From: Candidatus Fraserbacteria bacterium
GTDB lineage: Bacteria; Bipolaricaulota; Bipolaricaulia; RBG-16-55-9; DRXL01
Assembly (NCBI GenBank): GCA_947085185.1
Contig: CAMTVK010000003.1
Span: 96,001 to 160,000 of the forward strand
DNA length: 64,000 bases
Direction: 5' to 3'
Part shown: piece by piece, positions 14,731 to 30,536 of the stretch
Layout: every line of letters starts with the position of its first letter
Numbering within the stretch: position 1 is the first letter of the stretch
Notes under the pieces: generated by a model
Database searches by the model: none
Told to the model about the DNA's origin: nothing
What the model saw: the letters and a program-made list of their open reading frames with translations, nothing else
Program-made: the position numbers and the translations under genes

Positions 14731-14732
14731 AT

Positions 14733-15905
14733 GTGATCGCGCGGTCTATTGCGCTGCTTGGGTCGACGGGCTCGATTGGGACGCAGACGCTCTCCGTCAT
14801 TGAAGCCCTCAATCACGCGGGACATCATCTCTCTGTGGTCGCTCTGGCTGCAGGGGAGAACTTAGAGCTCTTAGCGGCGCAAGCGCACCGCTTCCACCCG
14901 GAGCTTCTTGCCATTGCGCGTGCGAAAGATCTCAGGCGGCTCAGACAGCTTCTGAAGCTCTGGAGCGGCGAGATCGCTGTCGGTGGAGAGGGGATGCAAG
15001 CGGTGGCCACTCATCCCCGCGCTGATCTTGTCGTCAACGCTCTGGTGGGTGCAGCGGGATTGCTTCCGACTCTCGAAGCTCTGAGGGCCCATAAGCCCGT
15101 GGCCCTCGCAAATAAAGAGTCGTTGGTCATCGGGGGACATCTCGTCCGAGGGCTCACCCAGGGCGAGTCGGGACGTATCCTGCCTCTGGACAGTGAGCAC
15201 AGCGCGCTCTTTCAGATTATGAGAGATCTTCGCGACTCAAGTGAGCTTGAGAGAGTTATCTTAACCGCGTCGGGCGGGCCGTTCCGCACACGACCGTTAG
15301 AATCGTTTGAGGCGATTACGGTCGCAGAAGCCCTGCAGCACCCGACATGGCAGATGGGCAAGCGCATCACGATAGACTCGGCCACGCTCGTCAACAAGGC
15401 GTTTGAAGTGATCGAAGCCCATTGGCTCTTCGATCTGCCCTATGAGAAGATCGCGGTGCTCATTCACCCTCAGAGCATCGTCCACGGCTTGGTCGAGTTG
15501 GTCGATGGGACTCTCTTCGCCCATCTGAGCACGACGGATATGAAGCTGCCCATTCAGTATGCCCTCACCTATCCGGAGCGCTGGAGATCTTCTGGGGAGC
15601 GACTCGACTTAGTGAAGCAGAAGCTCGAGTTTGGGCCGGTGGGGCGGGAGCGCTATCCGGCGTTCTGGCTGGTTTGTGAGGCGGGGCGTCGCGGCGGGAC
15701 TTTTCCCGTAGTAGCCAACGCTGCTGACGAAGTCCTCGTGCAGAAATTCTTAAACAGAGAGATCTCGTTCTTGGGGATCGCGCGGGCATTAGAGCGAGTG
15801 CTCGCGGAGCACCAAGGCATTGCTGATCCGAGCCTTGACGAGATTCTCGAGGCCGACCGCTGGGCCCGTCAGCGCGCTCGCGAGATCGTCCAAGATTTTA
15901 TATAA
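14733..15905 (+). CDS. dxr: 1-deoxy-D-xylulose-5-phosphate reductoisomerase
   Basis: LGSTGSIG, LANKESLV, PLDSEHSA, LTASGGPF, HPTWQMG. Confidence 0.96.
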   Translation: MIARSIALLGSTGSIGTQTLSVIEALNHAGHHLSVVALAAGENLELLAAQAHRFHPELLAIARAKDLRRLRQLLKLWSGEIAVGGEGMQAVATHPRADLVVNALVGAAGLLPTLEALRAHKPVALANKESLVIGGHLVRGLTQGESGRILPLDSEHSALFQIMRDLRDSSELERVILTASGGPFRTRPLESFEAITVAEALQHPTWQMGKRITIDSATLVNKAFEVIEAHWLFDLPYEKIAVLIHPQSIVHGLVELVDGTLFAHLSTTDMKLPIQYALTYPERWRSSGERLDLVKQKLEFGPVGRERYPAFWLVCEAGRRGGTFPVVANAADEVLVQKFLNREISFLGIARALERVLAEHQGIADPSLDEILEADRWARQRAREIVQDFI

Positions 15906-15931
15906 TAAACACGAGAAGGAGAAAATCGCAT

Positions 15932-17119
15932 ATGGAGAAGGTGCGCAAGTGGTTCACTGTTTCGGCCGTCTTGATGTTGATCTTGGTCTTTATCGTGGCT
16001 TTGGATAACTACAATCAAGAGTGGAAGCGCTATCAGCGGGCCTATCTCACGAAGGTCCTTACAGATAAAACTTTGGCCGAGAAGGGCTCGCTCTCGCTGC
16101 TCGATCGGCTCGTGATAGCGGTCAACGCTGAGATGAATCTTCAGATCAGAAAAGTCGTCACCGAGGTGGGGCGCAGCGCCGATCTGTGTATGACGTGTCA
16201 TGCCAACGTCGGCGTACCGGGGTTTACAGCCGAGCCCCTCAAAGATCTTTTGGAGACCCATAAAGCTATAAAAGTCATAGAGCAGATGCCGTTCGATCAA
16301 GTAGGGTGTACGGCGTGTCATGGGGGGAATGCTCTGGCGCTGCGTGCCGAGCCGGCGCATCACGAGATGCGGTCTCGCTTTGCCCAGATCTTTGAAGAGA
16401 GCGTGGAGCGATTGCGCTCAGAACGGTGGGCAGAGCGCCAGCGAGGGATCGAGCTCATTCGTTGGATGACTGCGAACGACTTTGGCTTTGTCTTCAACGC
16501 TCCCAAGGAGCAGCGCGAGCAAGCTCTCGCGCGCATTCTGGCGTGGTGGCAGCTCCACAAAGACACGTTCTTAGTCGAGGGCTTTGGGGAGCGCAGCTCG
16601 CCGTTCCGCACCGAAAACCCTCAAGCGAAGATAATCGAGCAGCGCACTGACGTCTCTCTCGCGGGCGAGCCGTTGCAGTTTGTCGGCTCGGCCACGTGCG
16701 TTGCGTGCCATGGACGCCCCGAAATCAGCGACGTCTACATCCCCGAATCGAGCAAGCGCCACGTCGAGATCTGGTTCAGGCCGGAGTTCATGACGAGCAA
16801 AAATATCGAAGAATTTAAAGATCATCCGTTTATAGACCAAGAGACGCTGAAGACCATGGACGTGACCTGCGAGGCGTGTCACGGTCCAGGGAGCGAATAC
16901 ACGAAGCTCATGCAGAAGGGGATGGCCCTCGAAGCCGCGGGCCAGAGCGTCGAAGCTGCTGCCCTTATCGGGAAGGCCAAAGAGCTTGCGCGGGCCAACG
17001 CCCGACAGAACATGAGCGAACATGACCCAGCCACCGGATACTCGCGCATTTGGGCGATCTTTGAAAGGCTGATCGAGAAGGCCCTCGCGGCCAAGGGACA
17101 GAACCGCCCCACCGAATAG
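15932..17119 (+). CDS. Membrane-anchored tetraheme c-type cytochrome
   Basis: N-terminal TM helix; four CxxCH motifs (CMTCH, CTACH, CVACH, CEACH); C-terminal pair resembles a c554-like domain. Confidence 0.88.
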   Translation: MEKVRKWFTVSAVLMLILVFIVALDNYNQEWKRYQRAYLTKVLTDKTLAEKGSLSLLDRLVIAVNAEMNLQIRKVVTEVGRSADLCMTCHANVGVPGFTAEPLKDLLETHKAIKVIEQMPFDQVGCTACHGGNALALRAEPAHHEMRSRFAQIFEESVERLRSERWAERQRGIELIRWMTANDFGFVFNAPKEQREQALARILAWWQLHKDTFLVEGFGERSSPFRTENPQAKIIEQRTDVSLAGEPLQFVGSATCVACHGRPEISDVYIPESSKRHVEIWFRPEFMTSKNIEEFKDHPFIDQETLKTMDVTCEACHGPGSEYTKLMQKGMALEAAGQSVEAAALIGKAKELARANARQNMSEHDPATGYSRIWAIFERLIEKALAAKGQNRPTE

Positions 17120-17124
17120 CTGTA

Positions 17125-17178
17125 TTGACAGGCGCCCCTGGATCTTTTAGAATAAGTCGGAGTCTTTTACTCGGAGTT
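17125..17178 (+). promoter_or_regulatory. sigma70 promoter plus probable IscR/Rrf2 operator
   Basis: TTGACA(17125)-17-TAGAAT(17148), followed by the imperfect palindrome AAGTCGGAGTCTTTTACTCGGAGTT resembling IscR type-1 sites. Confidence 0.6.
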
Positions 17179-17182
17179 GGAA

Positions 17183-17611
17183 ATGAGAGTGACACGCAAG
17201 AGCGATTATGGGCTACGGGCGTTGTGCACCCTTGCGCGCCACTATAACGGGGAGCCTGTCTCTATTGGGCAGCTTTCCGCAGAGCACAAGATTCCTGAAC
17301 CGTTCTTGGAGAAGATCATGCAAGAGCTGCGCGAGCACGGCTTGGTCGAAGCGACGCATGGGCGCGGCGGCGGATATCTGCTCAAGAGGAGCCCTTCGCG
17401 CATCTCGCTGCGCGAGATCGTGAAAGCTCTCGACGGCCCGATCGCGCTCGTGACGTGTTTGGACCCAGCCTTAAAGTGCTCCATCAAAGCGGGCTGCCCC
17501 ACAAGTTCTATCTGGGAGATTATTAACCAAAAGCTCGAGGAACATCTGGCTTCGCTGACGTTGGGCGATGTCGTCAATATGCACCACCCTGAACGGGTGA
17601 CCTCATCATGA
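17183..17611 (+). CDS. Rrf2-family (IscR-like) Fe-S transcriptional regulator
   Basis: MRVTRKSDYGLRAL, GRGGGY; three C-terminal Cys (CLDPALKCSIKAGCP). Confidence 0.88.
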   Translation: MRVTRKSDYGLRALCTLARHYNGEPVSIGQLSAEHKIPEPFLEKIMQELREHGLVEATHGRGGGYLLKRSPSRISLREIVKALDGPIALVTCLDPALKCSIKAGCPTSSIWEIINQKLEEHLASLTLGDVVNMHHPERVTSS

Positions 17612-18654
17612 CGTTAGACGAGCGAGCCCGCGCAGCCTTACACACTATAGAGATTCCTCGCGCTCACCGACCGCTCAGCGATCTTGTGGAAGCTCTCTCT
17701 ATCGATGGAGAGGCTGTCCATGTGCGGCTGCGCTTGCTCCCCGCTTATGCGTCCAAATCTCAGCTCAAAGCCTGGGTCGAACAAGCATTCCAAGGTATTT
17801 CTGAGATCAAGACGGTGCACGTCGAATTTGCCCAGGCTCCACGACAGGCGCCTCGGCCCCGCCTCCTCCATCCCACACAGAAGCTGCACTTTCCCCAGAT
17901 CGCTCATATTGTTGCGATCTTTAGCGGCAAGGGCGGGGTAGGCAAAAGCACCGTCAGCGTCAATCTCGCTGTAGCGCTCGCGCAGTCAGGAGCGCACGTC
18001 GGGCTCTTTGACGCGGACGTGCACGGACCGAATATTCCTACGCTTCTGGGGCTGAAAGAGCCCCCCACAGTGAAAGCCGGAAAACTCATGCCCATCTTCA
18101 AATACGGCGTCCACGCTATGTCTATTGGGCTCTTAGTGGGCGGGGGAGATCCGCTCATCTGGCGCGGCCCGATGATCTCCAAAGCGATCAATGAGCTCTT
18201 AGAGAGCACGGCCTGGCCGGAGCTCGAGTATTTGATTATAGATCTCCCCCCAGGGACAGGCGACGCGCAGTTGGGCTTGGCTCAAGACCTAGAGCTTTCC
18301 GGGGCGATCGCTGTGACGACCCCCCAAGAAGTCGCGCTCTCCGATGTGCGCCGGGGCATTGGAGCTTTCCAGAAGCTGAATGTATCTATTGTTGGGCTCA
18401 TCGAGAACATGGCGTATTATATCTGTCCTCAGTGTGGGCACAAAGACTATATCTTTGGGCAAGGGGGTGGCGCCAGCGAAGCCCATAGACGCCAGATCCC
18501 GCTGTTGGGGCAGATCCCCCTCGATCCGAAGCTCCGCGAGAACGGCGACGCTGGGGTGCCTATTGTGATCGCGGCACCGTCGTCACCCACAGCTCAAGAG
18601 TTCACCAAGATCGCCCAGGCGCTCATCGAACGATGGAACACACACAAGGGGTGA
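17608..18654 (+). CDS. Mrp/NBP35 (ApbC) Fe-S cluster carrier ATPase
   Basis: SGKGGVGKST, DADVHGP, IWRGPM, DLPPGTGD, ENMAYYICPQC. Confidence 0.93.
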   Translation: MTLDERARAALHTIEIPRAHRPLSDLVEALSIDGEAVHVRLRLLPAYASKSQLKAWVEQAFQGISEIKTVHVEFAQAPRQAPRPRLLHPTQKLHFPQIAHIVAIFSGKGGVGKSTVSVNLAVALAQSGAHVGLFDADVHGPNIPTLLGLKEPPTVKAGKLMPIFKYGVHAMSIGLLVGGGDPLIWRGPMISKAINELLESTAWPELEYLIIDLPPGTGDAQLGLAQDLELSGAIAVTTPQEVALSDVRRGIGAFQKLNVSIVGLIENMAYYICPQCGHKDYIFGQGGGASEAHRRQIPLLGQIPLDPKLRENGDAGVPIVIAAPSSPTAQEFTKIAQALIERWNTHKG

Positions 18655-18660
18655 CCACCA

Positions 18661-18966
18661 ATGACCGCTGACGATATCCGCGAGGTGATCCGCGAGAACG
18701 TCTTCGACCCGGAGCTGGGCTACAACGTCGTGGATTTGGGGTTGCTCTACGACGTCGACATCCGCGACGACAAGACCGTGCGTCTGGAGATGACATTGAC
18801 GACTGTAGGCTGCCCGCTCTACGAGCAGATCCAAGCTGACTGTGAGCGTGCGATCAAGGAACGCTTTGGGGAGGACGTCACCGTTGAGGTCGATTTCGTC
18901 TTCGATCCGCCGTGGAGCCCAGAGATGATGTCGGAAGAGATCCGCGCGGAGATGGGATTTATCTAG
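18661..18966 (+). CDS. DUF59/SufT Fe-S assembly protein
   Basis: DPELGYNVVDLGL, MTLTTVGCP, FDPPWSPEMM. Confidence 0.92.
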   Translation: MTADDIREVIRENVFDPELGYNVVDLGLLYDVDIRDDKTVRLEMTLTTVGCPLYEQIQADCERAIKERFGEDVTVEVDFVFDPPWSPEMMSEEIRAEMGFI

Positions 18967-19599
18967 ATGGCTCGCTGTGTCTATTGTGGGAAGCGGGTGG
19001 GCAAGCGTGCTTGCCCGGCGCTGGGAGGGCTGATCTGTCCGTCATGCTGTGGGCAGCATCGCGGGATCGACATCAGCTGTCCGATCAGCTGCAAATATTT
19101 CAAGGCGCATGAGAGCTATCAGCGCGATCGGCTCGCCGACGAATTCCACGCCCTGTGGCGTGAGAAGACCGAATCCCTCTATAAAGCTGGCAAGGAGCGC
19201 GTGATCGATCTCATCGTCATGATAGAGATGCTGATCTATCAGTTCTATCGGGAGCGGGCCTTGGGCACAGACACCGATGTGCTCGAGGCGCTCGAAGCGC
19301 TCCGACGTCGGTTCAGCCCAGTGATGGTCATCGAGGCGGGGAGCACCGCGTTAGCTGCTCACATATGGCACGGCCTGCAAGAGTTTAAAGAATCCCTGAC
19401 TCCTGAAGAGGCCTCCGAGAGCTTAGAGAAGAGCTTGGAGATCTTCAGAGCCTACACGGACGCAACGCATCCCAGAAAGTATCTGCACGGGCTTTTGGGG
19501 CACGTCGCGCGATATTTTCAGCTTCCTCCGGAGATGACCACCAGCCCATCCCTCATTGCTACCCCGCAGATCGTCACGCCTCCTACTGCCAGGGGATGA
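18967..19599 (+). CDS. Hypothetical protein with Cys-rich N-terminal metal-binding domain
   Basis: Eight Cys in the first 40 aa; starts immediately after the SufT stop. Confidence 0.75.
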   Translation: MARCVYCGKRVGKRACPALGGLICPSCCGQHRGIDISCPISCKYFKAHESYQRDRLADEFHALWREKTESLYKAGKERVIDLIVMIEMLIYQFYRERALGTDTDVLEALEALRRRFSPVMVIEAGSTALAAHIWHGLQEFKESLTPEEASESLEKSLEIFRAYTDATHPRKYLHGLLGHVARYFQLPPEMTTSPSLIATPQIVTPPTARG

Positions 19600-20635
19600 C
19601 CCATTCCCACTGGGGCCCACGGAAGTACTGTCCAATAATAATGAGCGCGATCGCCGCTCCTATTAAGAAGACAAAGAGCGCTGTAGTCACCGGGCGGTCC
19701 CGCAGACGACGTCCCGGGGGCTTGCTCTTGTCTTTTCTCCAGAACTCCAGATAGGGCTCAATATAGGGGATCGCGATCAAGATCAAAATAAAGAGCGTGG
19801 GCGCGATCACGCCCCCAAGAGCCACGCTTGTCAGCGGCCCAATATTGGGAGAAATTGCTAACAGCTCTTGGATGCCCACAAAGTACCAAGGGGCTTTCTC
19901 GGGATTGGGCGTGAACGATGGGGTCGCCGGTTCTTGGAGTGGGGCATCGCGGAAGACTGAATAGATCCCAAGCCCCGCCGTCAATACAAACAGAATCGTA
20001 AACGCTACATAGAGAAAGTACGGATAGGTGATGATCTCTTCTTCTTCGGTGGGGAGGCGCTTGGCGAACGCTTCGAGGATCTTCTGGACTTTTTCGTGGG
20101 TGAGCTCAAACTGGGTTGGGATCTCTTTGGTCTTCTGCTCTTTGGAGACGTAGCTAAAGATCGTATAGAGAGCTTCAAAGTCTGAGGGGTCGCCGCCGCC
20201 ATCGAGCAAGGCTTCCACGCGATTGCTCAAGTCTTTGAGTCTCTTCACGGTCAGCGTCTGTCTGGAGGGCAGCTGGCGCAACGGGATCTTCTCGGCAGCG
20301 TAAGCCAAGACATCTCTCACGAGCCCTGGCTCGATCTGAAGAGCTTCGGCGACTTCGTAGCCTGGGATTTCTATCTCTATCTCTTGGGTGACGTTGATTT
20401 GACATGAGAGCCGCCAGCCCTGGCTGAGCTGCTCTTCGCCCAGGACGTCGAGCTCATTTTGATTGGGCTCTCCTCCGCCCTTGAAGACTCTGACGGCACA
20501 GGTCGAGCACTGCCCCTGGCCTCCGCACGTCGCAGGGAGTTGATCATCATAGCGATGCTCTTGAATGAGCTTTAAGAGATTGGTCCCTGGTCGGACGTCA
20601 AATTCTTTCTGGCCAAGAATGACGACCTTGGGCAT
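19583..20635 (-). CDS. [2Fe-2S] ferredoxin fused to cytochrome b C-terminal part (subunit IV/PetD-like)
   Basis: N-terminal CGGQGQCSTC...RLSC; C-terminal TM helices with DAPLQEPATPSFTPNPEKAPWYF (PEWY-position motif). Confidence 0.85.
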   Translation of the reverse strand: MPKVVILGQKEFDVRPGTNLLKLIQEHRYDDQLPATCGGQGQCSTCAVRVFKGGGEPNQNELDVLGEEQLSQGWRLSCQINVTQEIEIEIPGYEVAEALQIEPGLVRDVLAYAAEKIPLRQLPSRQTLTVKRLKDLSNRVEALLDGGGDPSDFEALYTIFSYVSKEQKTKEIPTQFELTHEKVQKILEAFAKRLPTEEEEIITYPYFLYVAFTILFVLTAGLGIYSVFRDAPLQEPATPSFTPNPEKAPWYFVGIQELLAISPNIGPLTSVALGGVIAPTLFILILIAIPYIEPYLEFWRKDKSKPPGRRLRDRPVTTALFVFLIGAAIALIIIGQYFRGPQWEWVIPWQ

Positions 20636-20636
20636 A

Positions 20637-21266
20637 CTAGCTGGGGTTCACCCCTGCCTTGGCGGCTTGTTTGAGTCTCTCTAAGACGGGCGTGCCGCCG
20701 GGGTAGCACCCATCGAGCTTGGCTTTGCCGGCGACGACAGCCTCCGCAAAATCCTCGCACGTGGGATACCCGCAGGCCAGACAATCAAAGCCGGGCAAGA
20801 CCGCGCGGAGCTTGGCCGCCGCGGGCGAGAGCGCTGGAGCTTTGGGAGCTTCAGGAGCTTGCTCGACCTTGGGCCAGGACATGACTAACGGCTTAAAGAG
20901 CTCGATCACAAGATCGCTCTTCATCGAGATCTGGCATGATAAGACCCAGCCCTCCTTGCGCAGCTTATCGCTGAGGGGGCCGAGCATCGCCGGGGTGATC
21001 TGCTCTGGAGCCAGCCCTTCTAAGACTTTGACGCGGCAGGTCGCGCACGTGCCCTTGCCGCCGCACTGCGCGAACAGATCATACCCGGCTTTTTTGAGGG
21101 CTTGCATCAGGTTCTGCTCCAGGGGTAAGACCAGCTCATTGCCGTCGTTGACGATCTTGACGCGTGCCTCTCCCTCAGCTGTGAGCACATTCTTTAATAT
21201 CCCTAACACAAGAGCTACCGAGATGGCCATCAGGGCCATCGTCGCTACTGGTACGAGATAGACCAT
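20637..21266 (-). CDS. Membrane-anchored Fe-S protein: NqrF-like TM+[2Fe-2S] domain plus RnfB-like [4Fe-4S] domain
   Basis: TM helix, CGGKGTCATC...LSC, then LPGFDCLACGYPTCEDFAEAV...CYPGG; no FAD/NADH domain. Confidence 0.82.
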   Translation of the reverse strand: MVYLVPVATMALMAISVALVLGILKNVLTAEGEARVKIVNDGNELVLPLEQNLMQALKKAGYDLFAQCGGKGTCATCRVKVLEGLAPEQITPAMLGPLSDKLRKEGWVLSCQISMKSDLVIELFKPLVMSWPKVEQAPEAPKAPALSPAAAKLRAVLPGFDCLACGYPTCEDFAEAVVAGKAKLDGCYPGGTPVLERLKQAAKAGVNPS

Positions 21267-21293
21267 AAGATCACAAGCTATGAGCTTGGTTTT

Positions 21294-21890
21294 TCATCCT
21301 CCAAAGTCGCGAATATTGATCATTCCCGAAAAGCCCACGAAGCTCATGGCCATGAGGCCCGCAATGATCAGGGCGATCCCTGGGCCTTTGAGCCCCTCAG
21401 GGATGGGAGCAAAGCGCAGGCGCTCTCTCATAGCCGCCATCAAGATGATCGCCAAAGCCCAACCGACGCCCCCGCCAAACCCAAACGCCACGCTCTCGAG
21501 AAACCCCAAATTCCATGTGGCTAACGCGAAGAGCACCCCGCCCAGAATCGCACAATTCACTGTGATCAAGGGCAAGAAGATCCCTAAAGAGTTATACAAA
21601 GCCGGGAGAAAGCGCTTCATGAACATCTCCACGGCCTGGACCAAGAACGCGATCGTCACAATATAGACGATGAGCGACAGATATCCTACTCCCAAGGGAT
21701 CGAGCACAAAGTGCTTGATGAGCCAATTGGCAGGCAGGGTCATGGTCAGCACGAAGATCACCGCCATGCCCATCCCCGACGCCGATGCGTATTCGCCCGA
21801 GACGCCAATGAACGGACAGATTCCCAAGAACGTCGTGAGCAAGATATTATTCGTGAGGATCGCGCCAAGCACAATGAGAAAGATGTCCAT
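21294..21890 (-). CDS. rnfA: RnfA/NqrE membrane subunit
   Basis: NNILLTTFLGICPF, LPLITVNCAILG, AMRERL. Confidence 0.92.
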   Translation of the reverse strand: MDIFLIVLGAILTNNILLTTFLGICPFIGVSGEYASASGMGMAVIFVLTMTLPANWLIKHFVLDPLGVGYLSLIVYIVTIAFLVQAVEMFMKRFLPALYNSLGIFLPLITVNCAILGGVLFALATWNLGFLESVAFGFGGGVGWALAIILMAAMRERLRFAPIPEGLKGPGIALIIAGLMAMSFVGFSGMINIRDFGG

Positions 21891-21893
21891 AAG

Positions 21894-22574
21894 CTACGCG
21901 CCTCCTCCGATCTGGCCGCCGGGGGAGAAGTGCCTTACGATCCCGACATACAGCCCCACAAGTAAGAACGCCCCCGCCGGGATGATCATGATGACCCAGG
22001 GAGTCCAGCCGCTGAAGATCTGAATCCCGAACAAGCTGCCAAAGCCCAAGAGCTCCCGAACGATGCCGAGTATCGTCAGGGACATCGTGAACCCTAGCCC
22101 GACGCCGATAGCGTCGAGCGCCGACAGTCCTGGGCCGTTTTGGCTGGCGAACGCTTCGGCTCGTCCCAGCACGAAACAGTTCGTAATGATCAATGGGACG
22201 TAAGGCCCAAGCGCTGCCGACAGCGGCGGCAGATACGCGCGCAAGAAGATATCGACGATCGTTACCCAGAACGCAATGATGATCATATACGCGGGCAGGC
22301 GCACTTCCGCGGGGATAACGGTGCGGAGAGCTGCTACGGTGGCGCTTGAGGCCACGGTCGCGATCAGCGTCGCAAGCCCTTGGGCCATGCCGTTCATGGC
22401 CATGTTCGTCGCGCCCATGGTGGGGCACATCGCCAAGATCATCCGGAAAGTTGGGTTGTCGTCCCAGATATCGCGAACGAGTTCCTTCCACCCTTTGGTC
22501 TGGGGCAGCCGCTGGGGGAACGGAATAGCCGGCGCTGATGCGCGTTGCATCACTGCTGTCTTCACTTCTGCCAT
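21894..22574 (-). CDS. rnfE: RnfE/NqrD membrane subunit
   Basis: NPTF...MCPTMGAT, PLIITNCFVLGRAEAFA, RELLGFGS, PAGAF; ATG 22574 has SD AAGGAG. Confidence 0.92.
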   Translation of the reverse strand: MAEVKTAVMQRASAPAIPFPQRLPQTKGWKELVRDIWDDNPTFRMILAMCPTMGATNMAMNGMAQGLATLIATVASSATVAALRTVIPAEVRLPAYMIIIAFWVTIVDIFLRAYLPPLSAALGPYVPLIITNCFVLGRAEAFASQNGPGLSALDAIGVGLGFTMSLTILGIVRELLGFGSLFGIQIFSGWTPWVIMIIPAGAFLLVGLYVGIVRHFSPGGQIGGGA

Positions 22575-22617
22575 CCGCCTCAACTCCTTCTGACTGCGCT
22601 GAGGTCAGTCATAAAAA

Positions 22618-22646
22618 AGCATACTAAAACTGTCCGATTTTTTCAA
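22618..22646 (-). promoter_or_regulatory. Possible internal promoter upstream of rnfE
   Basis: TTGAAA-17-TATGCT in the only sizeable intergenic gap of the operon. Confidence 0.45.
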
Positions 22647-22648
22647 GG

Positions 22649-23347
22649 TCATCGCTTTTTCTCTAGAATTTTTCGCAAGTTCGCGATCGCCTGGTTGAGC
22701 AGATCTCGCACCGTCGTGGACGTATACGTAGCCCCGGTGATGGCGTCAAACTGATTGGGGGCTTTGGGGGAGCTGGGATCGCGGAACTTCACAAACTCGA
22801 TGCGCGGCTCGGTCTTCATCCCTTTGAATTGGCTCCAAAATTTCTCTTCGGTCATGCGGAAGCCCAACCCTGGGGTCTCGCCGATCTCGAACGTCACGAC
22901 ATGCGCCCCGATAATCTCTGACAGATCGGGCTTGAGCGCCACTTGCATGGCGACGAGTCCCTGAAAGCCGCTGCCTTGGATGCGAATAACGTACGCTGAG
23001 AGCTCCCCGCCGATCTTGTCTTTGTAGACCTTCCAGTACGTAAAGCTATCGGCCTTGACCTCCTCGATGTGCTCTTTGAAGTACTGATCTATTTGGGCGG
23101 GGGAGAGCACAGGCAGCCCCTCTTGGGGGAAGAGCTCGTCAGCAGAGTACTCGCCCAGCGCCACAAGGATGCTCGAGCGCAGGCGGGCCTTGGCGTTCGC
23201 TTCAATAGTTGCTTTCGTCACTTCATTGACCACTGCGAGCAGTCCCCCCGCTATGGCGGCGATCGCTGTCAGCACCACGATCATGCGCCACTCGTGAGGC
23301 CCGATCAGCTTCTTCTTTCTCTTTTGGGGTTGTGCTGGCTCAGCCAT
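22649..23347 (-). CDS. rnfG: RnfG/NqrC covalent-FMN subunit
   Basis: N-terminal TM helix, GSGFQG, ETPGLG, FDAITGATYTS flavinylation motif. Confidence 0.92.
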   Translation of the reverse strand: MAEPAQPQKRKKKLIGPHEWRMIVVLTAIAAIAGGLLAVVNEVTKATIEANAKARLRSSILVALGEYSADELFPQEGLPVLSPAQIDQYFKEHIEEVKADSFTYWKVYKDKIGGELSAYVIRIQGSGFQGLVAMQVALKPDLSEIIGAHVVTFEIGETPGLGFRMTEEKFWSQFKGMKTEPRIEFVKFRDPSSPKAPNQFDAITGATYTSTTVRDLLNQAIANLRKILEKKR

Positions 23348-23353
23348 ACAAGA

Positions 23354-24469
23354 TCACCTCTTTTGGAGAGCTGGCGCCGAGAAGCTCTTGGGGATCGTGA
23401 ATCTGTCAATCAACGGCGTGAACATATTGCCAATTAAAATAGCGAACGTCACCCACTCGGCATAGCCGGTCAGCCCACGCCCCAGTACCGTCAACACTCC
23501 CAACATTATACCGAAGATCCATCGTCCGCGGACGGTCATAGGGCTCGTGACAGGATCGGTCGCATTGAGAAATGCCGCAAAGAGCAAGCCCCCACTGAGC
23601 ACGGCGTAGATCCCATCAGGGAATCTCACAGGATTGATAAAGCTGAGAAACTGCGAAGTCAGCCCAGCAGTAACGATCATAACTATTGAGACGCGCCAGT
23701 CAATGATCCGTGCATATAAGAGATAGAGTCCGCCTAGGAGAACGAGCAGGGCCGAAGTCGCTCCCAGGACATCCGCCCGACCAAAGCCCGTCACGAGCGT
23801 AAAGAGCTCGGGATTGGCAATGTCTGGGGAGTTGAACGCCCCCAAGGGGGTCGCCTTGGCGATGGCGTCTATGCCCTTTACTGATTCGGGAGACCAATGC
23901 ACAAAACCTCCAAGTCCGTCCGTCAACGGGTTGAAGGGCATGTACCAGCGCGTTGTCATAGCCGACGGGAACGCTAAGAGTAAAAACGCCCGCCCGCTGA
24001 TCGCCGGGTTGAAGATATTATATCCCGACCCGCCGAAGAGTTCTTTGACCCCAATGGCGAAGAAGATCCCCATCGCGACCATCCACAGGGGCAGCGTTGG
24101 GGGCAGCGAGAGCGCATAGAGAATGCATGTCACCAGCAGACCCTCGGTGATCTCGTGGCGCCGGACTGCACAGAAAGTAAACTCGACAGCCATCCCGACA
24201 AGATAAGTCACTACGATGATCGCCAGGGCACGCCATCCGTAAAAGTAGATGCTCGCCAGGGCCAGAGGGATGCAGACGAGTATAGGAGAGCCCATGTAGC
24301 GTTGCATTCCCAAGGCGTCCCGAATATAGGGGGCTTGGCGAGCTGGCTTATCGCTGCCGCCGAAGATCGAATCTTTGAGACCCTCCCATAGGATAGCCAA
24401 GCCCTCGGCACGGCGGGCGTGGAGGTCGCGATGCACCCTCTCGAAGAAATTATAGATCTTGTCTTTCAT
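23354..24469 (-). CDS. rnfD: RnfD/NqrB membrane subunit
   Basis: APYIRDA, KELFGGSGYNIFNPA, DAIAKATPL, ATDPVTSP; ATG 24469 overlaps the rnfC stop (ATGA). Confidence 0.92.
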   Translation of the reverse strand: MKDKIYNFFERVHRDLHARRAEGLAILWEGLKDSIFGGSDKPARQAPYIRDALGMQRYMGSPILVCIPLALASIYFYGWRALAIIVVTYLVGMAVEFTFCAVRRHEITEGLLVTCILYALSLPPTLPLWMVAMGIFFAIGVKELFGGSGYNIFNPAISGRAFLLLAFPSAMTTRWYMPFNPLTDGLGGFVHWSPESVKGIDAIAKATPLGAFNSPDIANPELFTLVTGFGRADVLGATSALLVLLGGLYLLYARIIDWRVSIVMIVTAGLTSQFLSFINPVRFPDGIYAVLSGGLLFAAFLNATDPVTSPMTVRGRWIFGIMLGVLTVLGRGLTGYAEWVTFAILIGNMFTPLIDRFTIPKSFSAPALQKR

Positions 24470-25890
24470 GATGCCTCCGTGAGAACCTTGCGTTTGCCTT
24501 CGCGAATCTGTTCTAAGAGCGGGATCTTGCTGGGGCAGACATAGGCACACAACCCGCACTCAATGCACGCAAAGAGATCAATGCTTTGCGCTTCGCTCAC
24601 CATACCGTGGGCAGAGTATTCCCCAAGCAGCGCCGGCACTAAATTCTGCGGGCAGACGTCCACGCAATAACCGCACTTGACGCAGGGCCTGGGGTTTCCG
24701 TTCAAGCTGGTCGTGGCGCGCTTGTACTTGACCCACGGCAGACTCAGATACACCCCCGTGAACGAGTCGCGATCGAAGCCCGGCCCAACGACGGGAAAGA
24801 GCTCATGCTCTGGTTCTTTGAGGGCGATCACAGCGGGGATCTCTCTGGTGATGGGGCTATCGAGATCCCCCTGGGCTTGTCCACGCATGACGCTTCCCGC
24901 GATGATGCGCCCGTTGCCCTTCAAGTTCTTCTCTAAAAGATTCCCGATGGGGGTGCCTACCCGAACCCGATAGTTCCCAGGCTCTTTTACAGCTGAGCCC
25001 GCTACGGAGACGACGCGCTCGACGAAGGGCTTGCCCTCTACGACCGCTTCATAAGCTGCCACACACTGCTGGACATCACACACGACGCACCCGACGTCAG
25101 TGGCGTAGCCTCGCTGCGGGAGCAGGAGCCCCAAGAGCGTGCGCACAAGCACCGCGTCGTCGCCCTGAGGGTATTTGGGACGCAATTGATGGATCGTGCA
25201 CCAGTCATAGTATTCGAGGCGCTCGATGAGCTCTTCGTAGATTCTCGGCTTGTTATATCCCAAGCCAATGTGCACTTGGACGTTCCCGAGCGCTTGGCGC
25301 AGGATCTTGATGCCGTTGACAAATTTGTCGAACTCTTCGTAGAGCAACTGATCGGGTGCTTCGCAGAACGGCTCGGTCTCAACGGCGTTGATTAGTAAAT
25401 AGCGAATCTTCTCTGGAGTGGCTGGGGAGGAGTGATAGATCGTGGGGAAGCCCGCTTGGCCTCCCGAAGTGACCCCGGCTTCGTAGAGGATTTTTCCCAG
25501 TTCTTCTGGGGGCAGTTTTTCGTAGTTGGCCGGGCGATCAAGCAAGAGCCAATCGTCTTTGCCGTCGGACTCGATCTCGACGCAGAGGGCCTCGCCACCT
25601 AACGGATGCGGGCGCTTCTCTATCTTCACGACCCTTCCGGAGATGCTTGCGTGGACAGGGGTCGAGGGTCTGTTGGGGTCGGGCTCGTTGCGCCCGATGA
25701 CCTGCCCCGTCTTGACGCGGTCGCCCTCTTTGACAGTCGGCACGACTTCGGCAGAAAAGCCCTGACGCAAGGGAATCAGAACTCTCGGGGGCAGCGGCGC
25801 GGATGCGAGCCGCTTGCCGCGCGGCGTCCCCTCAAAGAGCCCAAAGTAATGGCCACCCTTGAACGTCTTGAGCGCTCCTAAGACAGCCAT
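24466..25890 (-). CDS. rnfC: RnfC/NqrA-like subunit with two [4Fe-4S] motifs
   Basis: PVHASISG, AGFPT, LINAVETEP, KYPQG, CVKCGYCVDVCP and CIECGLCAYVCP. Confidence 0.9.
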   Translation of the reverse strand: MAVLGALKTFKGGHYFGLFEGTPRGKRLASAPLPPRVLIPLRQGFSAEVVPTVKEGDRVKTGQVIGRNEPDPNRPSTPVHASISGRVVKIEKRPHPLGGEALCVEIESDGKDDWLLLDRPANYEKLPPEELGKILYEAGVTSGGQAGFPTIYHSSPATPEKIRYLLINAVETEPFCEAPDQLLYEEFDKFVNGIKILRQALGNVQVHIGLGYNKPRIYEELIERLEYYDWCTIHQLRPKYPQGDDAVLVRTLLGLLLPQRGYATDVGCVVCDVQQCVAAYEAVVEGKPFVERVVSVAGSAVKEPGNYRVRVGTPIGNLLEKNLKGNGRIIAGSVMRGQAQGDLDSPITREIPAVIALKEPEHELFPVVGPGFDRDSFTGVYLSLPWVKYKRATTSLNGNPRPCVKCGYCVDVCPQNLVPALLGEYSAHGMVSEAQSIDLFACIECGLCAYVCPSKIPLLEQIREGKRKVLTEAS

Positions 25891-26649
25891 TTAGCGTCGC
25901 TTCCTTTCTTCGGTCCACCAGGGTTTGCTGTACTCGTCCTTGCGAATTCTCCAAAAGTGCAGCGCCACGAGAAAGATCAACGCCATCGGCAGCACAAAGA
26001 TGTGAATGACGTACCACCGCAAGAGCGAGGGCTGCCACAGGTCCGTGCCCCCCAAGAGTATCTGTTTCACATACGGCCCGATGATTGGTGTGCCGTCCGC
26101 GATATTGCTGGCGATCTTCGCTGCATAATAGCCCAACTGGTCCCAGGGCAGAATATACCCACTGAATGCAGAGAGCACCGTGATGACGAAGAGCAAGACC
26201 CCGATGACCCAGTTGAATTCTCTGGGCTTTTGATAGGATCCGGTGAAGAAGACCCTCAGCATATGGAAGAACACGGCGAAGACCATCAGCTCGGCGGCCC
26301 ATTTGTGCATATTGCGCATGAATCTTCCCAAGGGCACAGCGTTGACCAGCTCGCGGATAGAATCATAGGCACGCTCAACTGAGGGCACATAATAGAACAT
26401 TAAAAAGACCCCGGTGATCAAGAGAATCACAAAGAGCCAGGTTGCGATCACGCCCATCCACATCCAATTGTAGCTGAGTCGGGCCGATTCTTTATGGATC
26501 TTCGCGGGCAGGATATGCACGAAGAAGTTGCGCCTATTGAGAGCGAGCCGGTCGGCTTCAGTCTGGGGCAGCCCCTCGCGGCGGAAGATGGAGAGCCACA
26601 CGCGCGAGCGCCGTATACCCTGGCCCAGCAGAAGGAGTCTGTCCATCAT
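25891..26649 (-). CDS. Cytochrome b N-terminal part (cytochrome b6/PetB-like)
   Basis: ITGVFLMFYYVPS, RNMHKWAA...FHMLRVF, PREFNW, GYILPWDQ, WYVIH...LHFWRIRK (four heme-b His). Confidence 0.93.
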   Translation of the reverse strand: MMDRLLLLGQGIRRSRVWLSIFRREGLPQTEADRLALNRRNFFVHILPAKIHKESARLSYNWMWMGVIATWLFVILLITGVFLMFYYVPSVERAYDSIRELVNAVPLGRFMRNMHKWAAELMVFAVFFHMLRVFFTGSYQKPREFNWVIGVLLFVITVLSAFSGYILPWDQLGYYAAKIASNIADGTPIIGPYVKQILLGGTDLWQPSLLRWYVIHIFVLPMALIFLVALHFWRIRKDEYSKPWWTEERKRR

Positions 26650-27197
26650 GAGAACTTGATGTCACTCCCGTCGGGGATGGGGCCTTCGATAGATCGGCCG
26701 TCGGCCGTGAGATACTGAGTACTTGGGACGACTTTGGCCTTATCGACTTGGAGACGGCCGTCGGGGGTGAGGGTGAGCTCATAGAAGGGCAGGGGTCGAG
26801 GCGCTGGGCCGCCCAGGACTCGCCCGTCGCGGGCAAAGACGCTCCCATGACAGGGGCAGAGCGCGTGCACCACGGGATACTCTTGACTTGGCGGCCCAAA
26901 GGGCTTATAGCTGCACCCCAGATGGGTGCAGACCATAGAGAGGGCCTGAAATCCCAAGGGCGTTCGGAAGATGAAGACCTGCTTCGCTTCGAGAGGGCGC
27001 ATCTCTCCGACCTGATAGTCACTGGGGCGCCCTACGGTGAACGTCGTGGTGGGCTCATAGGTCAGGTGCGGCTTCAGATAATACGGGACGCTCTGGGCCA
27101 CACCACCCAAAGCCAACGCGAGCGATCCCCATCCCAGCCACCCGAGAAAGCGTCGCCGCGTCAGCGGGCTCACTCTTGGGTCTCTGTCCGCCTCCAT
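26646..27197 (-). CDS. Rieske [2Fe-2S] subunit (PetC/QcrA-like) with Tat anchor
   Basis: TRRRFL twin-arginine motif, CTHLGC, CPCHGS, GPAPRPL. Confidence 0.94.
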   Translation of the reverse strand: MEADRDPRVSPLTRRRFLGWLGWGSLALALGGVAQSVPYYLKPHLTYEPTTTFTVGRPSDYQVGEMRPLEAKQVFIFRTPLGFQALSMVCTHLGCSYKPFGPPSQEYPVVHALCPCHGSVFARDGRVLGGPAPRPLPFYELTLTPDGRLQVDKAKVVPSTQYLTADGRSIEGPIPDGSDIKFS

Positions 27198-27227
27198 TCA
27201 GGAACCTGCTCCTTCGTTTATGGGGTG

Positions 27228-27256
27228 ATTATATTACAGCCCCTTTGCGCTGTCAA
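27228..27256 (-). promoter_or_regulatory. Perfect-consensus sigma70 promoter of the Rieske/cyt b-Rnf operon
   Basis: TTGACA-17-TATAAT on minus strand, overlapped by an ACAGC...GCTGT inverted repeat; SD AAGGAG precedes the Rieske ATG. Confidence 0.8.
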
Positions 27257-27371
27257 ACTTCTCTGATCTTCTACTCTATTGAGGGGATCTTTTGCCATGA
27301 TCTGCGTCATCCCTGAGGATGACGTCGGTCATGTGATGGCCCTCGCTCTTTTTGTTATGATTATTATATCA

Positions 27372-27962
27372 ATGTTTACTGGGATTGTCACGGACACCGG
27401 CGAGGTGCTCACGGCGCACGCGACGCGGCTTGTCATCGCTACCCCTAAGCTCTTTGGAGCATTAGAAATCGGGCGGAGCGTCGCGGTCAATGGAGCGTGC
27501 CTGACGGTCATCGAGCTCACTCCTGCCGCGGAGAGCTTCGCGGCAGAGCTGAGCCCAGAGACCATCCGGCGCACGAACTTGGGAGCCCTGCGCCGCGGCG
27601 ATCTCGTCAATTTGGAGCTGCCCTTACGATTTTCTGATCGTCTCGATGGGCACTTCGTGCTGGGGCACGTGGACACCGTTGGGGAGGTCGTCTCGATCTC
27701 TCGCACAGAGAAGGGCGCGGTCTTCCGGTTTCGCGTCGATAAGAGCTACTCACACTATCTGGTCGAGAAGGGCTCGATTGCCATAGATGGGATCAGCTTG
27801 ACGATCTTCAATATCTCTGATGGGGAGTTTGACGTGGCGATCATCCCTCATACGCTCGAGCACACGAACTTACGGGTGCGTTGCCCTGGGGATAGAGTGA
27901 ATGTCGAGTTCGACATTTTGGGAAAGTATATAGAAAGACTCTGCAAGGGAGGCTGCTTGTGA
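27372..27962 (+). CDS. ribE: Riboflavin synthase (alpha chain)
   Basis: MFTGIV N-terminus, [31 protein letters not shown]. Confidence 0.95.
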
Positions 27963-29188
27963 TGGGGTTTGCCAAGATCAAAGAGGCGCTGGAAGCGCTC
28001 AAGCGTGGTGAGATGATCGTCGTCGTAGACGACGAAGACCGCGAGAACGAAGGCGACGTCGTATTGGCAGCCCAGTTTGTCACCCCGGAGAAGATCAATT
28101 TTATGGCGAAGGAGGCCCGGGGGATCATCTGTGTGCCCATGACGGGGGAGCGGCTCGATGAGCTTGGGATCAAGCTCATGGTGCAGACGGATTCTGGGGG
28201 AAAGGGATGCGCGTTCACGGTCTCAGTAGACGCTCGCGAGGGGATCAGCACCGGGACGTCTGCGTACGATCGCGCCCATACTATTAGAACGCTGATCGCT
28301 CCCAAGACCAAGCCTTCAGATTTAGTCCAGCCGGGGCATGTCTTTCCGTTGCGTGCTCGGCCCGGCGGCGTCTTGCAGCGGGCTGGCCACACCGAAGCCA
28401 GCGTCGATCTCTGTAAATTAGCGGGGCTCTACCCTGCTGCGGTCATCTGCGAGGTGATGAACGAGGACGGCACGATGGCCCGGCTGCCCCAGCTGGAAAG
28501 ATTCGCACAGAAGCATAATTTGCTCATTATAAGCATTGCCGATCTCATTCGCTATCGCTACGAACGCGAGCGCTTGGTCGAGAAGATCGCCTGGGCCGAT
28601 CTTCCTACGGAGTTTGGGGAGTTTACGATCCATGCCTATCGCAGTCTCGTTGATGGAAAGGAGCACATCGCGCTGGTCAAGGGCGAGGTCACCGGAAGAG
28701 AGAACGTCTTAGTGCGGGTGCACTCAGAATGTCTGACAGGAGATGTCTTTGGCTCGCTCAAGTGCGACTGTGGGGAGCAGCTCCGGCAAGCCCTGCGCCA
28801 GATCGCCCATGAGGGTATGGGGGTCTTGCTCTATTTACGCCAAGAGGGACGCGGCATCGGCCTAGGAAACAAGATCAAAGCGTATCATCTCCAAGATAGA
28901 GGGCTGGACACGGTGGAGGCGAACCGGCAGCTCGGCTTTAAAGAAGATCTCCGCGAGTACGGCATCGGGGTACAGATTCTGAAAGATTTGGGGCTGAGCA
29001 CCATTCGAATTCTCACCAATAACCCCAAGAAGCTCGTGGGCATCGAGGCCTACGGCATCAAGATCGTGGAGCAACTGCCCCTTTTAGTCGCGCCCAACCC
29101 CCATAATTATAACTATCTGAGGACGAAGAAAGAGAAACTAGGCCACCAGCTCGATGCGATCTTCGCGAACTTCAGCAATGAGCCTTAA
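27959..29188 (+). CDS. ribBA: Bifunctional DHBP synthase / GTP cyclohydrolase II
   Basis: [43 protein letters not shown]. Confidence 0.96.
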
Positions 29189-29588
29189 GATCGCGATCGT
29201 TGTCAGTCAATTTCACAGAGAGATCACCCAAGAGATGCTCAAGGGCGCTCAAGAGCACCTGCGAGGCGTCGCCGAGACCGAAGTCTTCTGGGTGCCGGGG
29301 GCGTTCGAGATTCCAGGGACCGTCAAGGGGTTGGCGCAGTCGGGGCGCTATGACGGCATCTTGCCCTTAGGGTGTGTGATCAAGGGCGAGACTGCCCATT
29401 TTGAGCATATTGCCCGCGCCGTGACTGATGCGCTCATGCGCTTGACTGTGGAATGCGATACCCCAATAGTCTTTGGGGTGCTGACCCCCTACACCGAAGA
29501 GCAAGCGTGGGCACGCGTCTATAAGGGGGCTGAAGCAGCCAAGAGCCTGCTGGAGCTTATCACTCTGCGTCGGCGGCTCTCTTATTAA
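29178..29588 (+). CDS. ribH: Lumazine synthase
   Basis: [25 protein letters not shown]. Confidence 0.94.
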
Positions 29589-30534
29589 GAGCCCGTGTGT
29601 GTCGCCCATCGGCGAAGACTTTCAGGGATCCCCACTGAAGGGTGGTCGCATGGGGGGCGGGCGTCCAGATCGAGATCGTCTCGCTAGAGAGCCCTTGCAC
29701 AATCCCCAAGCCCACGAGATCGCCGTTCGCGCAACAGCCGACCAGCGAATTCTGGAGCTCTCCCCACAGCTTGATCGCGAGGGACTCGACCCCAAGAGCC
29801 CGCTGGGCTTCTAGAGGTGAGAAGGGCCAGCGCTCGACGACGAGCGTCGCTCTTGTGGGCAAGCGCCATGCAGCCACCACCGGACAGGCCAAGAGATTCG
29901 AGAGCAACGTCACATCCAAGGGCTCGCCGTGCCCCACAAGCGAGCGCTCCACCCCAAGCTCAGCAAAACGCCAGCACCGCAGAGTAGCGCCGTGAAAGTG
30001 CTGGCGGAATGCGTCTTCACGCGCGCGGATGCGCTCCTCGCGCCCCTTGGCACTCCCGTGTGCCACGGGAATCTCAATCACGGTGATGCCCGCGCGAGCA
30101 TAGAGCTTATAGTAAGCGAGCTCTCCGGAGCGCTGCAGCAGCACGAGCACGTCGGGCTGGACCAGATGGATCAGCTCGCTCTTGTAGGCGCGCGCCGCTT
30201 CGCCGTAAATATAGCCGTCGGTGTCGATGAGCACGGGGCGGCAAGCCCCACGAAGACACTGAGCCACCCCGGTGAGCACCTGTAAGAAATTCCCCCGCGG
30301 CGAGATGTCCCCCACAAAATAACTTGAGAGTATCTCATGGTGATCGTCCCGGACGCGCCCACGCGAGATGCACGCCGGCGGGCCCAGCCAACTTTGGCCC
30401 ACATCCGCGTCGATGACCTCCCCGCCCAGGCGCCGATGGATCTCGCGGATGAGCGTGGTCTTGCCCACGTCGGTCGCGCCCAGAACAAGTGCGATCGAGC
30501 GCGGGCTTAGGCGCTCAAAGAGTCTCTCAAGCAC
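29560..30534 (-). CDS. Clp1/Grc3-family polynucleotide 5'-kinase
   Basis: GATDVGKTT P-loop, DADVGQS, IDTDGY, RIRAR lid; GTG start 2 nt after the pmbA stop. Confidence 0.78.
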   Translation of the reverse strand: MLERLFERLSPRSIALVLGATDVGKTTLIREIHRRLGGEVIDADVGQSWLGPPACISRGRVRDDHHEILSSYFVGDISPRGNFLQVLTGVAQCLRGACRPVLIDTDGYIYGEAARAYKSELIHLVQPDVLVLLQRSGELAYYKLYARAGITVIEIPVAHGSAKGREERIRAREDAFRQHFHGATLRCWRFAELGVERSLVGHGEPLDVTLLSNLLACPVVAAWRLPTRATLVVERWPFSPLEAQRALGVESLAIKLWGELQNSLVGCCANGDLVGLGIVQGLSSETISIWTPAPHATTLQWGSLKVFADGRHTRALNKRAADAE

Positions 30535-30536
30535 TG

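Follow-up and report, generated by a model that had tools for sequence, protein, structure and literature searches.

Two gene clusters of the anammox bacterium Kuenenia, Kuste4569-4574 and Kustd1480-1485, encode Rieske/b complexes that contain an oxidoreductase for nicotinamide adenine dinucleotide (phosphate), NAD(P), an extension for which a connecting role between haem b and NAD(P) has been proposed (PMC12954380). Electron input at the cytoplasmic side has also been proposed for the b6f complex with ferredoxin/FNR (PMC5600118), and other fusions of cytochrome b to iron-sulfur (Fe-S) and flavin domains are recorded in PMC4122944. Here we analyse a nine-gene operon in a 64,000-nucleotide stretch of DNA from Candidatus Fraserbacteria (assembly GCA_947085185.1, contig CAMTVK010000003.1, positions 96,001 to 160,000; hereafter the window), in which the genes for a Rieske/cytochrome b complex are interleaved with those for an Rnf/NQR-type ion pump. 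This architecture is conserved, is restricted to one lineage and fits no described family.

A cluster of this kind has been mentioned before. In one sentence, Takami 2012 (PMC3267732) reports that the rnfCDGEAB genes of Ca. Acetothermum autotrophicum (OP4C155-0162) are grouped like an operon with genes for Rieske and cytochrome b proteins, almost surely the operon type described here, although a preliminary description of the window had considered the arrangement possibly undescribed. That paper treats the cluster as an ordinary Rnf ferredoxin:NAD+ pump, and its available text makes no mention of a subunit IV fusion, an atypical B or coupling.

Interleaved Rieske/cytochrome b and Rnf/NQR genes

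The operon and the cytochrome gene that accompanies it comprise the following features, in which FMN stands for flavin mononucleotide and Tat for twin-arginine translocation.

27228..27256, minus strand: sigma-70-type promoter match (12/12), 31 nucleotides (nt) upstream of the Rieske start, predicted from the sequence
26646..27197, minus strand: Tat-exported Rieske [2Fe-2S] protein of the Ser-Phe (Mid+) type, both ligand boxes intact
25891..26649, minus strand: four-helix cytochrome b6 with invariant His115/129/216/231 and an extra invariant His45, without the haem ci cysteine
24466..25890, minus strand: C, an RnfC/NqrA intermediate with two [4Fe-4S] clusters, an NqrA-type insert and a partly kept FMN/NAD site
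23354..24469, minus strand: D, RnfD/NqrB, with FMN Thr207, riboflavin ligands Asn154 and Asp305, and an NqrB-type N-terminal extension
22649..23347, minus strand: G, RnfG/NqrC, with FMN Thr207
21894..22574, minus strand: E, RnfE/NqrD, with both [2Fe-2S] cysteines
21294..21890, minus strand: A, RnfA/NqrE, with Cys25 and Cys113
20637..21266, minus strand: B-like subunit with an anchor helix, an NqrF-type [2Fe-2S] domain and an RnfB-type [4Fe-4S] domain
19583..20635, minus strand: [2Fe-2S]:subunit IV fusion, with an NqrF-like [2Fe-2S] domain (1-95), a helical domain (about 100-195) and subunit IV with an APWY Qo motif
15932..17119, plus strand: membrane-anchored tetrahaem cytochrome c, outside the span covered by the preliminary description and probable acceptor of the Rieske protein

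All nine open reading frames (ORFs) lie on the minus strand in the order given by the preliminary description (Rieske-b6-C-D-G-E-A-B-like-[2Fe-2S]:subunit IV), and their coordinates bear out the tight junctions that it noted: Rieske and b6 overlap by 4 nt, the b6 stop abuts the start of C (0 nt), C and D overlap by 4 nt, and the remaining gaps are 6 nt (D/G), 74 nt (G/E), 3 nt (E/A), 27 nt (A/B-like) and 1 nt (B-like/subunit IV). The perfect promoter that it placed upstream is a 12/12 match at 27256-27228; 14 kb of sequence hold 10 matches (shuffle mean 4.9), and none of the others is as good; a second match (9/12), inside the 74-nt G-E gap, is at chance level. The eighth gene, which had been assigned to the NqrF/RnfB position, does encode an Fe-S protein, but one that by its domains is neither RnfB nor NqrF. 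Across the operon, ligands are conserved for the b haems, the Rieske cluster, a further six Fe-S sites and the flavins of D and G. The GC content of the operon (0.56-0.58) matches that of the rest of the window, and the genome that carries it (G000) holds a single copy.

Among 34 loci found with b6, nine have all nine genes in order and 10 have a reduced form (Rieske, b6, C, D, B-like and fusion) without G, E and half of A; nine more are cut at contig ends but consistent, four are plain Rieske/b clusters and two have b6 alone. C follows b6 in 27/27 Bipolaricaulota-type loci having downstream DNA, so the interleaved order, for which the preliminary description had proposed a gene-neighbourhood check, is conserved in relatives. 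An assembly chimera is ruled out both by this recurrence and by contigs from runs X1 and X2 (X1 being possibly the source sample), which span the b6-C junction. Records of relatives with b6 63-94% identical are mostly labelled Bipolaricaulota, Acetothermia or Fraserbacteria. Three Thermotogae-labelled records (L003, L021, L024) have b6 66-93% identical to that of the window and may be mislabelled.

The fusion protein occurs in 27/184 Bipolaricaulota genomes, 26 of them among the 35 of the window's order (including G107 and G108, where it is split into two genes) and one outside that order. It has 53 near-full-length relatives at ≥47% identity among 67 matches, and a comparison with 1.84 billion representative proteins gave only one full-length and one half-length match. 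Neither fusion nor operon was found outside Bipolaricaulota among the protein representatives or in 80 of at least 513 confirmed metagenome C-subfamily loci; cytochrome b stands beside C in three of those 80, and all three score as this clade.

Reduced and b-less forms

The strongest case for linking the two halves physically and electronically comes from the 10 reduced loci. No A/E-family gene was found anywhere in 11 genomes having the fusion and C (a separate count likewise gave 0/10), and in the reduced loci D is directly followed by a longer B-like gene whose N-terminus corresponds to the C-terminal half of A (HH probability 96.5%, E 9e-10; 8/11 above the best of 1100 shuffles), with no match to E or G. 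In these forms C keeps both clusters and the B-like subunit all eight cysteines, and the flavin sites of D decay, Asn154 being kept in 3/10 and the Ala of the FMN motif in 0/10. A quick tree of C gives two reduced groups and a quick tree of D one, so that the number of pump losses differs between them. Since C and the chain of Fe-S domains (hereafter the wire) are retained without A/E, the wire would have a pump-independent route, and what persists between the b halves appears to be a pump-less scaffold of C, anchor and three Fe-S domains. We consider it likely that both modules form one membrane complex, whichever way electrons run through it, and such a machine would stand in for complexes I and III.

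The alternative is two separate complexes on one promoter: a Rieske/cytochrome b complex, in which the fused ferredoxin would serve soluble partners, and a ferredoxin:NAD+ pump of the Rnf kind. Two genomes, G095 and G103, do carry the Rnf-like half without cytochrome b, as does locus L115 as far as 5 kb upstream of its C gene; gene order can persist through inheritance within one order; and the fusion is split in G107 and G108. However, the B-like subunit is without the RnfB ferredoxin domains, the reduced forms cannot be Rnf (A/E in 0/11 genomes) although C and the wire still lie between their b genes, and the fused ferredoxin is closest in fold to that of NqrF and so comes from the pump half. 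We therefore regard two independent complexes as improbable.

L067 (in G103) and L115 have the order C-D-G-B-like; their operons contain neither E nor A, and cytochrome b is absent from the vicinity. In G103, E and A are on another contig.

A pump module that is neither an ordinary Rnf nor an ordinary NQR

Family models prefer Rnf over Nqr for all five subunits, and the membrane cofactor residues of Rnf as named in PMC11889175 are all kept, that is, the A/E [2Fe-2S] cysteines, the G/D FMN threonines and the D riboflavin ligands. The predicted model of C (pLDDT 93) best fits RnfC, with a TM-score of 0.79-0.83, and its cluster cysteines are kept in 27/27; an insert of about 35 residues matches NqrA, not RnfC. 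Of 78 RnfC-invariant columns in the flavin domain, C keeps a fraction of 0.53-0.59 (n=29), compared with 0.86-1.0 in canonical RnfC (n=19), 0.24 in NqrA (n=2), and 0.37-0.47 and about 0.31 in near (n=5) and far (n=11) NqrF-bearing relatives, respectively. Fixed changes in this flavin site fall at positions 142, 145, 245, 246, 272 and 275. When the NADH contacts described in PMC9299107 are mapped by spacing, Gly144, Phe148, Glu171, Glu173 and Tyr240 are kept, one Glu is replaced by Asp and two contacts are lost.

The B-like subunit contains only PF04060 and PF00111 and scores 42.7 bits with the rnfB model, against a cut-off of 68.7; all eight of its cysteines are invariant (23/23), and Pfam and family models reveal no flavin adenine dinucleotide (FAD)/NAD domain and no polyferredoxin domain. 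Its [2Fe-2S] domain is 39% identical to the fused ferredoxin of subunit IV, which is closest in fold to the ferredoxin of NqrF (Z 13.8, root mean square deviation 2.4, 93 residues) and would therefore derive from the pump half. The nearest operons outside the clade have the order C-D-G-E-A-NqrF, and an NQR-type ancestry of the pump half seems probable from these comparisons. Two ordinary identities are ruled out: Rnf, since there is no polyferredoxin RnfB, and NQR, since there is no NqrF FAD/NADH domain and C keeps its cluster cysteines, unlike cofactor-free NqrA.

Another possibility is a headless NQR docked on a bc complex, with ferredoxin or the wire feeding the A/E-G-D loop, Na+ being pumped, menaquinone being reduced at an NqrB-type site in D, and C being structural like NqrA. 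D has both the NqrB-type N-terminal extension and the Arg151/Glu157/Gly158 signature in 19/19 full forms, C has the NqrA insert, and the nearest related operons are those with NqrF; moreover, G095, which is without the b module, has a 9-residue deletion in the glycine loop of C (n=1) yet keeps the pump. The quinone site of NqrB, described in PMC12174285, is less well preserved: the position of Gly141, a residue without which quinone reportedly does not bind (PMC10643135), is Met in the window and Gly in only 5/19 full forms (8/14 in NqrF-bearing relatives), and that of Phe159 is Leu in the window and Leu or Val in 19/19 full forms. An intact C beside a decaying D in the reduced forms would also be left unexplained. 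The shifts in the C flavin site and at Gly141 of D point away from an NQR-type output and towards use of C; neither is decisive, and we consider the docked, headless NQR a poor candidate, on a par with two separate complexes.

The length of the wire varies: L013:8405-9773 holds a pair of B-like genes and an additional [2Fe-2S] domain in them, and L022:15569-16372 and L024:11345-12181 have two tandem RnfB-type cluster domains. In operons of NQR order (L065, L066, L130, L133, L144 and L167-L192), the A subunit keeps both [4Fe-4S] clusters and loses the flavin motifs, and NqrF has 360 amino acids (aa). This widespread, Fe-S-keeping operon is apparently unstudied and is a possible Rnf-to-NQR intermediate. 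L065 and L066 are flanked by quinone-synthesis-like genes; in L133:12609-16896 a gene that fuses ferredoxin to NuoE, and one for a NuoF-like protein, come after the NQR-order operon; and L114:189-3401 has C and then NqrF, with no D/G/E/A between. A second RnfC/PrdC-like protein of G000 (L084:3709-4791, on C7; 361 aa), without the N-terminal domain, is encoded next to lipoyl synthase and pyruvate dehydrogenase genes.

The Rieske/cytochrome b module and its cytochrome c

The Rieske ligand boxes are invariant in 14/14 aligned sequences, and of the two potential-tuning positions one has the Ser and the other lacks the Tyr, a Ser-Phe combination classed as "Mid+" (PMC4122944). All four haem histidines of b6 are invariant (16/16 aligned). 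The attachment cysteine for haem ci is absent from the 16 aligned sequences, the four plain relatives lack it too, and in the b6 of the window the residue just before the one aligned with b6 residue 36 is Trp64; His45 is invariant and common to the plain clusters too. Subunit IV scores 18.3 bits against Pfam, just below the cut-off of 20.7, and matches ExtQ with an E value of 7e-12. Its Qo motif is of the APWY type, with Pro-Trp-Tyr in 51/51 and Ala in 50/51, a clade of Rieske/cytochrome b complexes described as uncharacterised (PMC4122944). From its first helix a Glu that is present in 4/4 plain relatives and a His present in 3/4 are missing, an invariant Tyr and a nonpolar residue standing in their places.

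Because the four nearest plain clusters carry a single long fused cytochrome b, these four loci suggest that the pump genes were inserted between its two halves. A multihaem cytochrome c follows in three of the four, and the tetrahaem cytochrome c at 15932-17119 is 25-29% similar to these plain-cluster cytochromes. It adjoins the operon in seven loci and, over 35 genomes, occurs together with the fusion in 26, without it in one, and is absent along with it from eight; strong oxidase matches are present in 24/26 fusion-carrying genomes. The pattern fits a role as probable acceptor of electrons from the Rieske protein.

G000 also has a second, unrelated Rieske/fused cytochrome b cluster (L088, C9:1-14000), the neighbours of which are multihaem cytochromes with 3, 9, 18, 8 and 8 haem motifs, including an HAO-like protein.

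Genome context and direction of electron flow

G000, which is 96.8% complete, has genes for acetyl-CoA synthase, CO dehydrogenase, a soluble hydrogenase and pyruvate dehydrogenase, as well as for succinate-dehydrogenase-like flavoproteins, aa3 and cbb3 oxidases, MenA and ApbE. Subunits of complex I and membrane subunits of the Mrp type were not found in it, nor was an NqrF-type protein, the sole match being a hydrogenase gamma subunit. Across genomes, NuoD is present in 11/11 reduced-form genomes and in 4/19 genomes that carry A/E and belong to families f1 and f3 (absent from 15/19), a comparison among kin that are not independent; some of the NuoD matches are possibly hydrogenases, and the two operons inspected are Nuo. 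Since pump and complex I are in this way complementary, the distribution suggests that the pump loop does the job of complex I. Menaquinone is the presumed quinone, with MenA present in G000; futalosine genes were found in none of the 35 genomes and MenB scored above its cut-off in 3/35.

Because the energy-conserving direction in known Rnf and NQR runs from B/F to A/E to G to D (PMC11889175, PMC12174285), we read the full form as a forward pump, with electrons passing from NADH and ferredoxin to menaquinone and on to cytochrome c. Ferredoxin-level electrons would come in through the B-like subunit and traverse the A/E-G-D loop, with Na+ exported as in Rnf/NQR, to join NADH-derived electrons at subunit C. 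From the [4Fe-4S] clusters of C they would leave via the [2Fe-2S] domains for the cytoplasmic haem (bH) of cytochrome b, where the fused ferredoxin would substitute for haem ci, and quinone would be reduced at the cytoplasmic side of cytochrome b or at subunit D. Menaquinol would then be oxidised at Qo, one electron passing through the Rieske protein and the tetrahaem cytochrome c to the aa3/cbb3 oxidases. This direction is favoured because G000 is without complex I or NqrF yet has aa3/cbb3 oxidases, pyruvate dehydrogenase, MenA and ApbE; the NuoD distribution, and a flavin domain of C better kept than in NqrF-bearing relatives, speak for it as well. We hold it tentatively, doubt slightly outweighing belief.

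Several findings weigh against this forward reading. The cytoplasmic quinone site looks remodelled in a manner that would fit electron export better than quinone reduction, and FMN may not bind C, given a flavin site far from canonical. The clusters of C alone prove nothing, since NqrF-bearing relatives keep them too. NDH-2 was not found in G000, with a weak query (control rings 3/14), so that another NADH entry is possible. Finally, G095 has lost Rieske, b6, fusion and tetrahaem cytochrome c from otherwise syntenic DNA, keeps C-D-G-E-A-B-like, and gave no cytochrome b or haem-copper oxidase match; as the pump half is kept alone there, the link is modular, not obligatory.

Some of the same features could be read as the same complex running in reverse, in an anammox-like manner: menaquinol would be split at Qo, one electron going to cytochrome c and oxygen and the other via the wire to NAD+ at C or, in the full form, back to menaquinone via the Na+ loop. 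The absence of the haem ci cysteine and the loss of the His/Glu of subunit IV fit this, as do the APWY Qo motif and Ser-Phe Rieske protein, a class tied to higher potentials and for which reverse operation was suggested (PMC4122944); an anammox Rieske protein with Ser but not Tyr has a potential of +335 mV (PMC12954380). By spacing only, the invariant His45 may match a predicted dimer-haem ligand (anammox His43/His62), and all reduced forms have complex I to recycle NADH. However, His45 and the missing ci cysteine are shared with the plain clusters, G000 would be left without an identified NADH-to-quinone entry, and, by the estimates of potential given in PMC12954380, driving NAD+ reduction via the loop along with Na+ pumping would seem to demand too much energy. 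We therefore think reversal unlikely, if less so than the docked NQR or two separate complexes.

In summary, the hybrid of Rieske/b and Rnf put forward in the preliminary description gains from the conserved interleaving, the lineage-specific ferredoxin on subunit IV and the reduced form, but G095 shows that it is not obligatory; that description did not include the reduced form, an ancestry of NQR type for the pump half or the tetrahaem cytochrome c as a partner. Of the two directions that it offered, we favour the one from NADH, with ferredoxin, to quinone and cytochrome c. Our estimate is evenly balanced on a broader proposal, that this is a new type of supercomplex, with an Rnf/NQR Na+ pump built into a Rieske/cytochrome b complex, ferredoxin replacing haem ci and Qi, the low-potential branch of the Q-cycle wired to the Na+ pump and an NAD(H) site, and the pump being a cassette that is dropped where complex I is present. 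If true, this would add a way of coupling the Q-cycle and offer a natural test of the long-proposed electron exchange at the cytoplasmic side of cytochrome b (NAD(P)H bifurcation in anammox, ferredoxin input to b6f); the full, reduced and b-less forms are a ready comparative series. The proposal, if true, would also mean that living intermediates exist between Rnf and NQR and that the "Rnf" of Ca. Acetothermum, cited for acetogenic energy conservation, probably belongs to a respiratory chain linked to oxygen or nitrogen oxides.

Neighboring genes

Between the cytochrome c gene and the end of the operon, 17177-19599 (plus strand) encodes an Rrf2 regulator, ApbC/Mrp, a SufT-like protein and a 210-aa cysteine-rich protein without clear family, a set that is syntenic in seven loci of close relatives and likely supports Fe-S assembly. 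On the other side, riboflavin synthesis genes (27318-29588, plus strand) start divergently from the promoter region of the operon; such genes lie within about 3 kb of the operon in full and reduced forms, which fits a flavin-rich complex. Farther away, an ORF of 1393 aa (41869-46050, plus strand), the N-terminus of which is signal-like, lies in GC-rich DNA. An Rfam search of 14000-32000 gave no match.

Comparison with known systems

No such hybrid appears in the available text of PMC5317091, PMC3362086, PMC9588780, PMC12174285, PMC4014512, PMC5600118 or PMC11626177, and full-text literature searches, supplements and subscription journals excepted, gave no report of the fusion, the reduced form or a coupled Rnf/NQR-Rieske/b complex.

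Like the operon described here, the anammox complexes have a four-helix b6, a separate subunit IV, a multihaem cytochrome c and a cytoplasmic Fe-S/flavin extension. Their extension, however, is a soluble FAD enzyme, and they have haem cN, whereas the operon has an RnfC/NqrA-type subunit, an ion-pumping core and two extra [2Fe-2S] domains, with no haem ci cysteine. With the APWY-clade Rieske/cytochrome b complexes it shares the APWY Qo motif and the Ser-Phe Rieske protein; the four nearest plain clusters differ in having no Rnf genes, no ferredoxin on subunit IV and one fused cytochrome b.

On the pump side, the Rnf complexes of Acetobacterium woodii (9ERI), Clostridium tetanomorphum (7ZC6) and Azotobacter (8AHX) share with it the C-D-G-E-A order, all membrane cofactor ligands, the two clusters in C (the models agreeing at the TM-scores given above) and a B8-type cluster domain. 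In contrast to Rnf, the operon has no polyferredoxin RnfB; it has an NqrA insert and altered flavin site in C, an NqrB-type N-terminus of D, and flanking cytochrome b genes. The Na+-NQR of Vibrio cholerae and the NqrF operons L065, L066, L130, L133 and L144 are similar to it in the order of the genes, in the NqrA insert, in the extension and signature of NqrB, and in the NqrF-like anchor with its [2Fe-2S] domain. The operon departs from NQR by lacking the NqrF FAD/NADH domain, by not retaining Gly141 and by keeping more of the flavin site of C. Taken against all of these, the operon adds a variant to the Rieske/cytochrome b complexes that carry redox extensions on their cytoplasmic side, and it may encode a new supercomplex.

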